Notes: generated from the sequence alone by a model not told the origin. DNA of 64,000 nt from an uncultured Verrucomicrobiota bacterium (GCA_964647595.1 CAZYGH010000010.1:20362-84361), one strand, 5' to 3'. Counted from the first letter of the stretch, positions 1 through 4,620 are shown. Program-made: numbers and translations.

Positions 1-56
1 ACCGTCGTGTCCTGCACTGCAGGGTGGGTGGGTTCGACTCCCATGCGTCTCCGCCA
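1..56 (+). tRNA. selC: tRNA-Sec (selC), 3' portion; 5' part lies before the window
   Basis: Window starts with ...GGGTGGGTTCGACTCCCATGCGTCTCCGCCA. The T-arm GGTTCGACTCC plus an 8-9 nt acceptor 3' strand, G discriminator and CCA closely matches the 3' end of E. coli selC (..AGGTTCGACTCCTGTGATCTTCCGCCA). It lies immediately upstream of selA. Confidence 0.6.
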
Positions 57-80
57 ATTGAATGAATGAAGGAGATCGTT

Positions 81-1454
81 ATGAATCTGCATGAAGATCC
101 CCGTCGCGGGATTCCGTCGATGTCGGAGCTGCTGGAGCGCGAAGAGGTGACGGCTCTCATTGCGCGTTACTCGCGCGGAGTGGTGGTGAAGGGGTTGCGC
201 GCGGTGACGGATGAACTGCGGCGATTGCCCGATGGGGGTGGAGAGAAGACCGATGTTCTCGCCATCTTGAAGGCGACGCAACAGCGGTTGGAGGGCGATG
301 AGGTGGATCGGCTTCGTCCCGTGGTGAACGCAACGGGCATTCTGTTGCATACGGGGCTGGGGCGGGCGGTGTTGCCGGGGGAGGCTGCCGAAGGATTGGC
401 CCAGATGGATCGCTGTTGCAATTTGCAGATCGATCTGACCACTGGCAAACGTGGCAAGAGGAATTACTTGTGCGAGCGGCTCCTTTGCGAGCTGACCGGG
501 GCGGAGGCGGCGCTGATTGTGAACAACAATGCGGCGGCCACGTTGCTGATTCTGACGGTGCTGTGCCGTGGGCGCGAAGTGATTGTCTCGCGTGGCGAAC
601 TCATCGAAATTGGCGGTTCGTTTCGGTTGCCGGACTGCATCACGGCCAGCGGGGCCGAGATGCGTGAGGTGGGAACTACCAACAAGACGCATTTGAGGGA
701 CTACGAGGGGGCCTTGACCGAGCGTACGGGGGCGTTGTTGCGGGTGAATCCCAGCAACTATCGCGTGATCGGATTCAGCAAGCGTGTGGAATTGTCCGAG
801 CTGGTGGAGCTGAAGCAAAAGCACGACGTCCTGGTGATCGATGATCTGGGTTGCGGGGCCTTGGTTGAACTGCAGCCGTATGGTTTGCCCCGCGAGTCGC
901 TGGTGCAAGATAGCCTTGCGGCGGGGGCCGACATCGTTTGTTTCAGCGGCGACAAACTCATCGGCGGGCCGCAAGCGGGTATTGTGGTCGGAAGAAAAGA
1001 CCTGATCGATCGAATTCGAAAGCACCCGCTGACGCGCATGTTGCGGGTGGGAAAATTGACCGACATGGCTCTGGAGCAAACGCTGAGATTGTTTCGCGAT
1101 CCGGCGTCGCTGCCGGAGAAACATCCGCTGTATCGCATGCTGGCCAAGACGGTTTCAGACCTGCGCGCCGATGCGAAAAGGCTGGCCAAAAAAATAGGCG
1201 CGGCTGTTTCGGTGGAAGACGGATTCAGTGAGATGGGCGGCGGGGCTTTGCCGGGAGTGCCGTTGCCGACGGCTTTATTGGTGATTCGCGAAAAGGGAGT
1301 TAATCCACTGGAAATCGCTCGTCGCCTGCGCATGCGAGAGGTACCCGTTGTGGCGAGAATTCAAGAAGATGGGGTGGTGTTGGATCTCCGAACGCTTTTG
1401 CCGGGGGAGGATGAAATGGTGGTGAGTGCCGTGAAAGAGGTGTGCCATGGATAA
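81..1454 (+). CDS. selA: L-seryl-tRNA(Sec) selenium transferase
   Basis: ORF 66..1454. PLP-enzyme motifs (FSGDKLIGGPQAGIVVG, HPLTRMLRVGK) are typical of SelA. Start taken at the ATG at 81, preceded by AAGGAG. Confidence 0.9.
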   Translation: MNLHEDPRRGIPSMSELLEREEVTALIARYSRGVVVKGLRAVTDELRRLPDGGGEKTDVLAILKATQQRLEGDEVDRLRPVVNATGILLHTGLGRAVLPGEAAEGLAQMDRCCNLQIDLTTGKRGKRNYLCERLLCELTGAEAALIVNNNAAATLLILTVLCRGREVIVSRGELIEIGGSFRLPDCITASGAEMREVGTTNKTHLRDYEGALTERTGALLRVNPSNYRVIGFSKRVELSELVELKQKHDVLVIDDLGCGALVELQPYGLPRESLVQDSLAAGADIVCFSGDKLIGGPQAGIVVGRKDLIDRIRKHPLTRMLRVGKLTDMALEQTLRLFRDPASLPEKHPLYRMLAKTVSDLRADAKRLAKKIGAAVSVEDGFSEMGGGALPGVPLPTALLVIREKGVNPLEIARRLRMREVPVVARIQEDGVVLDLRTLLPGEDEMVVSAVKEVCHG

Positions 1455-2634: not shown

Positions 2635-2643
2635 GGGGAGAGC

Positions 2644-4620
2644 ATGAACTTTTCTCCCCCCGGAAGTTGGCGGCCAGAAAGCCGTGATGTGACGATGATG
2701 GTCTGCACGGCGGGCCACGTGGATCATGGAAAAACAAGTTTGGTGAAGTGGCTGACCGGATGCGAGACCGATGTCCTGAAAGAGGAAAAAGAGCGCGGAA
2801 TGACCATTGAGCCGGGGTTTGCTCCGTGCTCCACAAACGATGGCGTGAGCGTGGGAATCACGGATGTGCCGGGGCACGAAAAATTTGTTCGCAACATGGT
2901 CGCCGGGGTTTCCGGCGTGGGAATGTGCATTCTCGTGATCGCGGCGGACGATGGGATCATGCCGCAAACCATTGAACACTTCCAGATCATGGAGCTGCTG
3001 GGGGTGGAGCGCGGCGTGGTGGCGTTGACGAAGCGGGATCTTGTCGATGCGGCGACGCTGGAGCAGCGGATCGGTGAGATTCGCGCGTGGTTGGCGGGAA
3101 GTTTTCTGGAACATGCGCCGATTTGTCCGGTGTCGTCCTCCACGGGAGAAGGAATTTTGGAGTTCCATCAGACTTTTTCCGAGGCCGTGAATATGGCCGT
3201 TCGGTCGGAGCAAATGGGAATTTTTCGCATGCCGGTCGAACGGGTCTTTTCGATGGAAGGATATGGGCGCGTCCTGTCGGGTGTGCCGGTGGTGGGACAG
3301 ATTTCCGAAGGAGATTTGGTGGAGCTGGTTCCCGGTGGTGCGCAGGGGCGAGTGCGGGGGATGCAATGTTTCGGGCGGTCATCGGAGCAGGGGAGCTCGG
3401 GTTTGTGTATGGCGCTGAACATTCCAGATTTTGCGCGGGTTCATCCTCGGCGCGGCCAGGTTCTATGCCTGCCGGGGCGTTTACGGGCGGCCACCGTATT
3501 CCATAGTCGGCTTCAGATGCTGGAGCAGACGGGGATTCGTGTGAAGAACGGTGAACGGGTTATGCTTCACACTGGAACAGCCGAAGTACAGGCGCGCGTC
3601 TATGGTCTTGAAACGAAAGATCTCTCGCCCGGAGATTTGGCTTGGGTGGCGTTGGTCACGGACGAGCCGGTCGCGGCTACGCTTTATGATCGCTATATTC
3701 TTCGCAAATTGAGTCCAGTCCGAACGCTGGGTGGCGGACGATTCTACGATGTTTCGACGGACGCAAAACGGCCGCGCAAGGCCGATGCGCTGAAACGGCT
3801 TGTCCACATTGAAGCCCACTATGCTCGCACGGGATATCGCGACCGCGAGGCCGCGTCCTTGCTGGTGGAGCAGTGCGTGGAGATGAATCATCCGGAAGGC
3901 GTGGATGAGGCTGGCCTGCTGGGAGAGTGCCTGCTGACGGAGGAGGCATTGACAGACGTGCTTGTCGATCTGGTGAAGCGGGGAAACTTGATTCGTATGG
4001 GTCGCGACGGACTTTTGCATCGGCGCAGTGTGGAACAGTTTTGCGCAAGACTAGAGGGCGAAATTTTCAGCTTGTTCGAACAAGGGGAGCGGCTGCTGGA
4101 GACGGAGAGAATCGGGATTGGAGTGCCCGCCGGTGTCAAGACCTACGTGCTGGGCTTGCTCGCGGGTAGGGGGGCGATCGAGCTGAAGGGAAACCGTATT
4201 TTGCCTCCCGGGGGCAAGGAAGAGCCGAGTCCGGAGCAGCAACTTGCCGAGAAGGTCTATGAACTGTATGCCGAAACGGGTTTCAATTCTCCTCGCTCCG
4301 AGGATGTCCCAGACCTCTTGAAGGCCAACGCGCAGAAGGTGGAATCTTTGCTCAAGATGTTATTGACCGAAGGGCGGCTGATCCGAGTTTCGGCCAAGGT
4401 CATTCTCACTCGCGAACACATGGTGATAGCGCAGCAAAAAGTGGTGGAGGCCATTCAGAAAAACGGGCAGCTTGATTCGGGCGATTTCAAATTCCTGATC
4501 GACTCGACACGGAAGTATGCGTTGAGTATTCTGGAATACATGGATCGGACGCATGTCACGGTGCGCTTGGACAGCGTGCGCAAGTTGGCGCCGAACCATG
4601 AAAAACGCATGTTGAAATAA
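2644..4620 (+). CDS. selB: selenocysteine-specific elongation factor SelB
   Basis: GTP-binding motif AGHVDHGKTSL, EF-Tu-like domains and a long winged-helix C-terminal extension. The true start is probably the Met at 2695. Confidence 0.9.
   Translation: MNFSPPGSWRPESRDVTMMVCTAGHVDHGKTSLVKWLTGCETDVLKEEKERGMTIEPGFAPCSTNDGVSVGITDVPGHEKFVRNMVAGVSGVGMCILVIAADDGIMPQTIEHFQIMELLGVERGVVALTKRDLVDAATLEQRIGEIRAWLAGSFLEHAPICPVSSSTGEGILEFHQTFSEAVNMAVRSEQMGIFRMPVERVFSMEGYGRVLSGVPVVGQISEGDLVELVPGGAQGRVRGMQCFGRSSEQGSSGLCMALNIPDFARVHPRRGQVLCLPGRLRAATVFHSRLQMLEQTGIRVKNGERVMLHTGTAEVQARVYGLETKDLSPGDLAWVALVTDEPVAATLYDRYILRKLSPVRTLGGGRFYDVSTDAKRPRKADALKRLVHIEAHYARTGYRDREAASLLVEQCVEMNHPEGVDEAGLLGECLLTEEALTDVLVDLVKRGNLIRMGRDGLLHRRSVEQFCARLEGEIFSLFEQGERLLETERIGIGVPAGVKTYVLGLLAGRGAIELKGNRILPPGGKEEPSPEQQLAEKVYELYAETGFNSPRSEDVPDLLKANAQKVESLLKMLLTEGRLIRVSAKVILTREHMVIAQQKVVEAIQKNGQLDSGDFKFLIDSTRKYALSILEYMDRTHVTVRLDSVRKLAPNHEKRMLK

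Follow-up and report, generated by a model that had tools for sequence, protein, structure and literature searches.

The question raised by this locus is which proteins a complete set of genes for selenocysteine (Sec) incorporation serves, and whether machinery and clients belong together as a unit. The locus occupies the start of a 64,000-nucleotide (nt) stretch of DNA from an uncultured Verrucomicrobiota bacterium (GCA_964647595.1 CAZYGH010000010.1:20362-84361; hereafter the window), which opens with the 3′ part of a tRNA-Sec gene (selC) followed by selA, selD and selB. These four genes are a complete, tightly packed Sec toolkit, and we think it quite probable that this canonical operon is the 5′ end of a longer string of genes (1-9802) that runs into its own clients and their redox partners. 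The toolkit itself is of the textbook kind and in its usual arrangement; what is new is its link to uncatalogued protein families, above all a trio consisting of selB, a small gene whose product ends in a CPTU motif (U being the predicted Sec) and a gene for a NapH-like polyferredoxin. An initial annotation of the same DNA had joined the toolkit to a second family of predicted selenoproteins, with the motif FEYG-U, as an unusual arrangement and a discrete selenium island. Its observation is confirmed, and the complete, packed toolkit and the synteny stand; the unusual arrangement, the FEYG-U genes as constant partner and the discrete island find no support.

Bases 1–52 correspond to positions 41–91 of Rfam RF01852, in a 5′-truncated match of 22.3 bits that is under the 47-bit gathering score; at gathering thresholds Rfam reports neither a tRNA-Sec nor any selenocysteine insertion sequence (SECIS) family in the whole window, and the truncated tRNA appears only at a relaxed E-value. 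The segment 1–56 comprises the end of the anticodon stem, a long variable arm, a T-arm, GGGTTCGACTCCC, an 8-nt acceptor strand, G73 and an encoded CCA, and the 13 nt from the T-loop to the discriminator G are those of the 8/5 type (8-bp acceptor, 5-bp T stem). It aligns without gaps to the 3′ halves of tRNA-SeC(UCA) genes predicted by ARAGORN in six related loci (related loci are given here by L numbers: L006, L007, L008, L009, L010 and L012), in each case directly upstream of selA. The claim that the window opens with the 3′ end of selC is thus upheld by both the RF01852 match and the six syntenic genes.

Gene identities were scored against NCBIfam curated cut-offs and Pfam, with open reading frames (ORFs) of at least 150 amino acids (aa) submitted to Pfam, and selA, selD and selB each exceed their cut-off (Table 1). 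SelA contains the pyridoxal phosphate (PLP) lysine motif FSGDKLIGGPQAG, and its start is probably ATG 81, which follows AAGGAG, close relatives aligning from residue 6. The active-site loop of SelD (AGCASKIG) is the Cys form and aligns with GAGCGCKIS of Escherichia coli. SelB has GTP_EFTU (PF00009) and Beta-barrel_SelB (PF25461) domains and a C-terminal winged helix (SelB-wing_3, PF09107, residues 603–648), and the selB genes of relatives encode 655–666 aa. The selD start at ATG 1447 is backed by an in-frame ATG upstream of a conserved M-x-R-S in 43 of 51 related loci, typically 9–12 codons away across a conserved, basic stretch, and the 8-nt overlap of selA and selD therefore stands. A start at ATG 1474, which would give no overlap and from whose M-x-R-S about 50 homologues align, was dropped in view of the conserved upstream ATG and the basic stretch. 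With gaps of 9 nt from selD to selB and 3 nt from selB to the next gene, the tight packing on one strand described in the initial annotation is borne out by the scores and the start-codon evidence.

An additional feature of SelD is an N-terminal, Cys-rich extension of about 50 aa (window 1447–1600; CxC-x5-CPC-x9-CxC). Its pattern, M..RRKAV-M-x-RS-x-KLGHCxC-x5-CPC-x9-CxCAGE, contains six Cys and one His; the alignment with E. coli SelD (3u0o) starts no earlier than residue 41 of a query begun at the internal Met (1474), which is about residue 50 of the complete window ORF. The extension is kept in about 50 of 80 selA-linked selD genes from many phyla, is not in the solved SelD structures, and matched no Pfam or NCBIfam model; its Cys spacing may loosely resemble that of ferredoxin:thioredoxin reductase. 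There are other variants of SelD among the related loci. Six selD genes with Bacillota-type labels (L085, L071, L076, L068, L077 and L053) lack the Cys-rich module, and their active-site codon is an in-frame TGA (G-U-AAKIG); this type is the known Sec form of SelD, whereas that of the window is the Cys form. Certain lineages have a SelD with a CMD/AhpD-like domain (PF02627) fused to its C-terminus (L167:4048-5655 and the P0087 locus), and in L165:4236-5646 SelD and this domain are two adjacent genes.

The co-oriented, packed string does not end with selB at 4620 but runs on to 9802. The initial annotation took the FEYG-U proteins for the only selenoprotein candidates nearby; there is, however, a fourth UGA-containing gene, and it abuts selB. 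This small gene has 85 codons and encodes 83 aa, a UGA (4873–4875) and a Met before TAG, giving the terminus KCPT-UGA-AUG-UAG; the protein begins with a hydrophobic helix. The NapH-like protein encoded next has the Fer4_5 CX3CP motif and two 4Fe-4S motifs (PF14697 at 26.1 bits, under its 35-bit cut-off). The first of the three FEYG-U paralogs (P1) has a predicted signal peptide and periplasmic domain, followed by a UGA (6915–6917) and then, in the same frame, GGTCSYSWRVP... and a 279-aa membrane domain. A double-cubane-cluster reductase and its activase complete the string, the activase start overlapping the reductase stop (ATGA). Most junctions within 1–9802 are overlaps or gaps of 3–24 nt; the widest, depending on the choice of start codon, are 21–42 nt before the NapH-like gene and 24–79 nt before the reductase, and a simple scan for intrinsic-terminator-like sites in these two gaps found none. 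We therefore suggest that the string may be transcribed as a unit. The two other FEYG-U paralogs, P2 and P3, are convergent to it, and each has a predicted signal peptide, a CBM48 domain, FEYG-U-GF(T/S)C and a hydrophobic C-terminus; in P3 there are 93 further codons after the UGA, which include the hydrophobic segment. The stops of the activase (+, 9800–9802) and P3 (−, 9811–9809) are only about 6 nt apart, which leaves no room for terminators between the convergent genes.

Table 1. Coordinates of the Sec-machinery genes, candidate clients, redox partners and predicted SECIS hairpins in the window.
Feature	Position	Strand	Evidence and remarks
tRNA-Sec gene (selC), 3′ part	1..56	+	truncated Rfam RF01852 match and in-register alignment with relatives
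selA	66..1454	+	TIGR00474, 520.9 bits (cut-off 267.9)
selD, selenide water dikinase, Cys type	1447..2634	+	TIGR00476, 347.9 bits (cut-off 125)
selB, Sec-specific elongation factor	2644..4620	+	TIGR00475, 267.4 bits (cut-off 242.25)
Small membrane-anchored candidate selenoprotein	4624..4881	+	recurrence of CPTU-x-stop; abuts selB
SECIS-like hairpin of small gene	4890..4908	+	GGUCAUC-CGUGC-GAUGGCC
NapH-like membrane polyferredoxin	4903..5775	+	PF12801 matched twice; start probably ATG 4924
FEYG-U paralog 1 (P1)	5772..7757	+	start overlaps stop of NapH-like gene (ATGA)
SECIS hairpin of P1	6932..6948	+	GUACUC-AUGGA-GAGUAC
Double-cubane-cluster anaerobic reductase (HGD-D family)	7782..9026	+	NF040772, 413.5 bits (cut-off 350); PF06050; start likely ATG 7837
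BcrAD/HgdC-type ATP-dependent activase	9023..9802	+	TIGR00241, 228.5 bits (cut-off 125.4); PF01869
FEYG-U paralog 3 (P3)	9809..11788	−	signal peptide, CBM48, UGA 10093-10091
SECIS hairpin of P3	10076-10060	−	
FEYG-U paralog 2 (P2)	11798..13756	−	architecture like P3; UGA 12073-12071
SECIS hairpin of P2	12056-12040	−	

There is strong, although indirect, evidence that the four UGA codons would be read as Sec. First, at all four a hairpin with a 6–7 bp stem and a 5-nt G-rich loop begins 18 nt from the U of UGA (14 nt after the codon), and in the 64 kb the only UGAs with a long upstream ORF and a hairpin of 6–7 bp and 5-nt loop at offset 17 are these four predicted sites. Second, the hairpins are conserved. 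In an RNAalifold analysis of 14 FEYG-U sequences all six stem pairs have compensatory double changes (e.g. GUACUC/GAGUAC and GGCCAC/GUGGCC), with one broken cell. For the small CPTU gene, where a cross-phylum MAFFT alignment was poor and hairpins were folded one by one, a hairpin is present in 18 of 18 loci, in four selB-adjacent genes and in the more distant lineages, starting 15–22 nt from the U and with GGU, GUG or UGG in the loop, and the stem sequences vary between phyla. Third, the protein sequences point the same way. The FEYG-U sequence is conserved in frame past the UGA, and the small gene ends in C-P-T-U-x-stop in all 13 homologues identified by tblastn, from at least six phylum-level groups, as well as in the 18 hairpin-bearing loci and four further selB-adjacent genes; four more distant lineages have C-P-T-U-x-x-stop (TGA-NNN-NNN-stop), so that Sec would be within three residues of the C-terminus in all small-gene orthologues examined. 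Among 87 P1-type metagenomic genes the codon at the Sec site is TGA in 86, GGA in one and Cys in none, and no Cys homologue of FEYG-U turned up. P0024 is a frameshifted copy. The sole GGA (Gly) gene, L108:10181, shares its locus with another copy, 1.4 kb upstream, that has TGA; a pseudogene, a sequencing error and a Sec-less variant are all conceivable explanations for it.

The simplest competing explanation is that the UGAs are true stops, with the FEYG and CPT proteins ending there and the downstream ORFs and hairpins unrelated. TGA is the commonest stop in the window (16 of 23 genes), and the gene callers cut all family members at it, including every one of the 25 P2-type clusters; relatives of P1 are called as two genes of 382–383 and 254–258 aa. 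The use of TGA as an ordinary stop shows that there is no general reassignment of UGA. Termination at the four sites, however, would account neither for the protein conservation past the UGA, the covariation of the stem pairs and the constant +18 spacing of the hairpin, nor for the recurrence of TGA without any alternative stop codon and of a second stop one or two codons after it in the small gene, and we consider it highly improbable. A practical consequence is that gene callers systematically truncate or split CPTU and FEYG-U genes.

Several other UGA codons with hairpins were seen in DNA adjoining sel genes. One is in a further candidate selenoprotein with the sequence ...MCPT-U-GG(G/R)GGY(L/F)GEVAKPG (L024:4897(+), L027:7231(-), L036:6877(-) and L069:6947(-)), in which the UGA is followed after 15 nt by a 9-bp hairpin (GGCUACYUC, loop GGU). 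Two others recur in sel-flanking DNA, ...(Y/F)G-U-CIGSSPQVVDWN at L008:1996(+) and L024:6570(-), and ...C(G/P)(Y/G)-U-..S..(H/Y)QVLVS at L008:11675(-) and L024:9435(-). The hairpins of two CPTU-xx-stop genes that follow tRNA-Sec (GGCCAC-ACGGC-GUGGCC and GGUCAC-AUGGC-GUGGCC, in L121 and L163) are nearly identical to those of P2/P3-type FEYG-U genes (cf. window 12040–12056), which hints at a preferred binding consensus for this clade of SelB.

The CPTU and FEYG-U families are uncatalogued in NCBIfam, Pfam and a 2026 review of prokaryotic selenoprotein families (PMC13188914). With U replaced by C, the four UGA proteins have no NCBIfam match at E≤0.01 (selenoprotein models of June 2026 included) and no Pfam match other than the CBM48 domain of P2 and P3, the small protein having neither, and the text strings YGU and PTU are absent from the whole review, its family table included. 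The small protein resembles the X-star selenoproteins (UXX-star 1 and 2, KCU-star) and thioredoxin reductase (GCUG-COOH) in having Sec one to three residues from the C-terminus, and it has a CxxU pair. It does not match the X-star models NF041114, NF041211 and NF033934 (again at E≤0.01 with U replaced by C), and unlike these proteins it is predicted to be single-pass and membrane-anchored and is always paired with a NapH-like polyferredoxin. The latter shares its Fer4_5 CX3CP and two 4Fe-4S motifs in a membrane protein with the NapH/MauN/NosR polyferredoxins, but it is far under the NapH cut-offs (52.5 bits against 213 for TIGR02163 and 51.4 against 234 for NF007013), has no nap, mau or nos genes near it, and belongs to its own conserved subfamily of 779 homologues, of which the sampled members adjoin selB. 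A possible sequestering of the NapH-like start codon by the small-gene SECIS was dropped, as relatives start at the second ATG (4924) and the intergenic gaps vary.

Whether the arrangement of the machinery is itself exceptional was judged from the selA side. One genome per species was scanned and the 80 most similar selA loci were kept; arrangements were counted in the 56 with at least 4.5 kb downstream, and upstream tRNA genes in the 70 with at least 300 nt of upstream flank. The notion that sel genes are usually scattered is the E. coli picture (a selAB operon, with selC and selD). The order selA-selD-selB is found in 29 of the 56 loci, with selA-selB and a nearby selD in eight and selA-selD in six others, and the sampled loci come from Verrucomicrobiota, Sumerlaeota, Aminicenantes, Armatimonadota, Lentisphaerae, Eubacteriales and others. 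In 14 of 70 loci, among them every one of the closest relatives whose flank is long enough, selA has a tRNA-Sec gene no more than 300 nt upstream; other lineages have it 3′ of selB instead. The order selC-selA-selD-selB is thus normal for this part of the bacterial tree, and the clustering that the initial annotation had thought unusual is not; all Sec-decoding genes and other selenium-related genes are colocalised in Slackia, Coprococcus and Lachnospiraceae (Lin et al. 2015, PMC5322559), and selABCD clusters are noted in genome reports (e.g. PMC4498112). The regions of Lin et al. also include a subunit of the 2-hydroxyglutaryl-CoA-dehydratase (HGD) type and an activase among the linked genes. 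They differ in holding YedE, YedF, SirA-like, Sec-lyase and DUF3343 genes, none of which was found at the window locus, which has CPTU, NapH-like and FEYG-U genes instead. Operons with several selenoprotein genes, namely the SAO and Tso systems, grdAB and prdBC (PMC13188914), are alike in that selenoprotein genes of unrelated sequence are co-located with redox partners, but the window cluster is in addition physically joined to the Sec machinery itself.

We evaluated the link between machinery and candidate clients from four starting points. Seen from selA, the complete order is present again in L006, L009 and L012. It extends to more distant genomes, with selA-selD-selB-CPTU-NapH-like-P1-P2 present at 56–61% SelA identity in L010 (labelled Sumerlaeota) and L031 (labelled Nitrospiraceae). 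In Armatimonadota L043 and L065 the CPTU, NapH-like and FKYG-U genes are upstream of selA, as are CPTU, NapH-like and FEYG-U-type genes in L040 and L042 and a FEYG-U gene in L046 (also Armatimonadota); sel genes with FEYG-U neighbours are present in other gene orders in Lentisphaerae L069 and L078. From the P2-type side, a search of 5.8 billion proteins yielded only 25 clusters, and long contigs for three of these provided five loci. Where the contig is long enough these have selB, the 83-aa gene, Fer4_5, genes of 382 and 254 aa, an HGD-D part, the activase and FEYG-U, the HGD-D part being either a methyltransferase and three HGD-D genes or one HGD-D gene. Together these give an order from selB through the small gene, the NapH-like gene, P1 and HGD/activase to P2/P3 that is kept in L001, L005/L012, L006 and L009. 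The form with one double-cubane reductase gene and the activase is found in the window (7782–9802), L006, L009 and L086; in the same position L001, L002, L005 and L168 have an S-adenosylmethionine (SAM) methyltransferase and three HGD-D genes before the activase.

The P1-type side was searched in metagenomes with a P1-type alignment, a mixed FEYG-U alignment being too divergent, and the sample is therefore biased towards GGTCSYSW-type genes. It yielded 376 relatives, and linkage was scored on the 36 loci of at least 5 kb, 13 of which are at least 15 kb. There are sel genes in the flanks of 11 of the 36, with three more having tRNA-Sec and a NapH-like gene, and Sec-machinery genes lie within 10 kb in 6 of the 13; we estimate that a gene placed at random in a genome a few Mb long would show such adjacency in well under 1% of cases. 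Only 11 of 36 loci carry a sel gene, and the closest P1 relative (L086) has P1, reductase and activase but lacks sel genes in the 9 kb upstream. FEYG-U is thus no constant partner, although the conserved order in relatives and the sel neighbours in other phyla give the proposed synteny a firm basis. The fourth starting point is the NapH-like gene. Its search gave 779 homologues at E≤1e-20, the best 120 of which have 50–94% identity to the window protein, and in five of six large contigs sampled, with or without FEYG-U, selB is followed by an 83–88-aa gene ending in ...ACPTU-x-stop and then the NapH-like gene. Several sel operons have only the CPTU and NapH-like genes and no FEYG-U, and in L100, L104, L121 and L163, which have no selA in the locus, tRNA-Sec is followed by the CPTU gene and then the NapH-like gene. 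Synteny from all starting points thus identifies the CPTU/NapH-like pair as the constant companion of the machinery, and FEYG-U and the double-cubane reductase appear to be frequent but optional additions.

It could be argued that the neighbourhood is incidental, and that the sel operon is a housekeeping one kept for other selenoproteins (e.g. formate dehydrogenase), with the adjacency reflecting inherited synteny. The selA-selD-selB order is indeed common in many phyla, the neighbours of the locus are core genes (trp operon, ribosomal proteins, DnaB), its base composition is normal, and most metagenomic FEYG-U loci are without a nearby sel gene. Simple inheritance nevertheless fits poorly with sel/FEYG-U adjacency in at least five phyla and in varied orders (3′ of selB in the window, upstream of selA in L043, L046 and L065), with machinery genes in 6 of the 13 long P1-type loci against the small proportion estimated for a random gene, and with recovery of the selB-CPTU-NapH-like trio in five of the six reciprocal look-ups, and we regard it as rather doubtful.

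Several observations nonetheless weigh against an operon that carries its own clients. Of the 36 P1-type loci, 25 have no sel gene closer than 10 kb. The CPTU/NapH-like pair is missing from roughly half of the selA-selD-selB loci, those of Aminicenantes and Eubacteriales among them, which makes the linkage dependent on lineage. Nor are the related loci independent of one another phylogenetically, and metagenome-assembled genomes (MAGs) may in some cases bear a wrong taxonomic label. The 5′ half and the anticodon of the tRNA-Sec gene are upstream of the first base of the window; the syntenic relatives carry UCA. Finally, the case for an operon with clients is one of sequence comparison.

An operon with its own clients suggests a scheme for how the locus may work. 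The mechanism of SelA, SelB, SelD and tRNA-Sec is established for E. coli. The window has the same four components, with the PLP lysine of SelA, the Cys/Lys loop of SelD, the GTPase and C-terminal winged helix of SelB, an 8/5 tRNA-Sec, and UGA codons with a downstream hairpin. It departs from E. coli in having all four genes in one co-oriented string with the tRNA first, in the extra Cys-rich module of SelD, and in clients that are not formate dehydrogenases. By analogy, tRNA-Sec would be charged with serine, SelD would make selenophosphate from selenide and ATP, SelA would convert Ser-tRNA(Sec) to Sec-tRNA(Sec), and SelB would bring this to UGA codons with a downstream SECIS, the 6–7 bp hairpin with its G-rich loop being the predicted SelB target. 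Clients would be co-expressed with the Sec operon, and the four UGA/SECIS genes may constitute an extracytoplasmic or membrane set of selenol redox proteins. The small CPTU protein is predicted to have a single-pass, N-in/C-out topology with a C-terminal CxxU centre, to which the NapH-like membrane polyferredoxin could feed electrons; the FEYG-U domains would be exported or membrane-anchored, with P1 membrane-bound and P2 and P3 exported CBM48 proteins. The double-cubane protein with its activase would be a cytoplasmic, ATP-driven low-potential reductase accompanying the redox set. The ancient and constant core of the unit would be selB (or tRNA-Sec), the CPTU gene and the NapH-like gene.

A different role for these partners is a tentative possibility, in which steps ahead of SelD, namely the capture of selenium compounds or their reduction to selenide, or selenium sensing, would fall to the CPTU and NapH-like proteins and the double-cubane reductase/activase pair. 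This is suggested by the CPTU and NapH-like genes following selB or tRNA-Sec even where no FEYG-U is adjacent, by the double-cubane reductase gene between selA and selD in L030, and by the Cys-rich module on the window SelD. In Slackia, gene context also connects HGD-type subunits and activases with YedE, YedF, SelA and SelB (PMC5322559), and the double-cubane protein has been described as provisionally selenium-linked (PMC10418091). The absence of the pair from about half of the clustered sel operons, however, indicates that it is not a general requirement, and a supply step that itself needs Sec would be circular; moreover, the biochemical roles suggested for the CPTU protein, the NapH-like protein and the reductase are readings of gene context. 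We know of no physiological substrate for double-cubane reductases. A combined view, which we put forward with similar reserve, is that CPTU and NapH-like proteins make up an unrecognised, conserved accessory module travelling with selB or tRNA-Sec, which together with the reductase might supply or sense reduced selenium for SelD, and that FEYG-U is an obligate-Sec exported family served by this module.

In either role the locus ties the Sec machinery physically and evolutionarily to a NapH-like subfamily of 779 members, its CPTU-star partner and the FEYG-U family, whose hundreds of metagenomic members essentially all have Sec and none Cys. The CPTU/NapH-like pair is a candidate for a missing accessory step, be it one that delivers or reduces selenium or a Sec-based redox relay in the membrane. 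Machinery kept together with at least one client would make the Sec trait heritable and transferable as one unit, a natural example that may bear on the spread of this patchy trait.

Transfer as a unit also raises the question of whether the locus is a recently acquired, mobile selenium island, i.e. a discrete horizontally transferred element. The transfer of whole Sec traits has been proposed (PMC5322559), and the sharing of the whole selA-to-P2 order with L010 and L031 at 56–61% SelA identity, while flanks are shared only with L012, L006 and L009, would fit such a history. The GC content of 0.53–0.60 over 1–14 kb, however, matches the window mean of 0.57, Pfam identified no integrase or transposase among window ORFs of 150 aa or more (the window does not extend upstream of the tRNA, and no direct-repeat search was made), and the flank upstream of the tRNA is common to the closest relatives L012 and L006. 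The neighbours in the rest of the window are core genes, including the trp operon and those for ribosomal proteins, DnaB, PRPP synthetase and Pth. We consider a recent island improbable, and neither base composition nor flanks give evidence for the discrete, self-contained island of the initial annotation. Sharing of the block across phyla is compatible with an ancient transfer as a unit, within the limits set by MAG labels and non-independent loci.

In the same Pfam survey of the window no canonical selenoprotein family was matched. Two patches of the window are of low GC relative to 0.57 overall: 20001–22000 (0.48), which holds an HNH-endonuclease ORF (20672–21223), and 42001–44000 (0.45), which lies in the N-terminal part of a protein with an FGE-sulfatase domain. 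On the + strand, 29 of 32 2-kb bins have a positive GC skew, the negative ones all lying in 20–26 kb, and the cumulative skew climbs to 4.9. The skew is alike over genes on the + and − strands, and its uniformity suggests that the window lies on one replichore.

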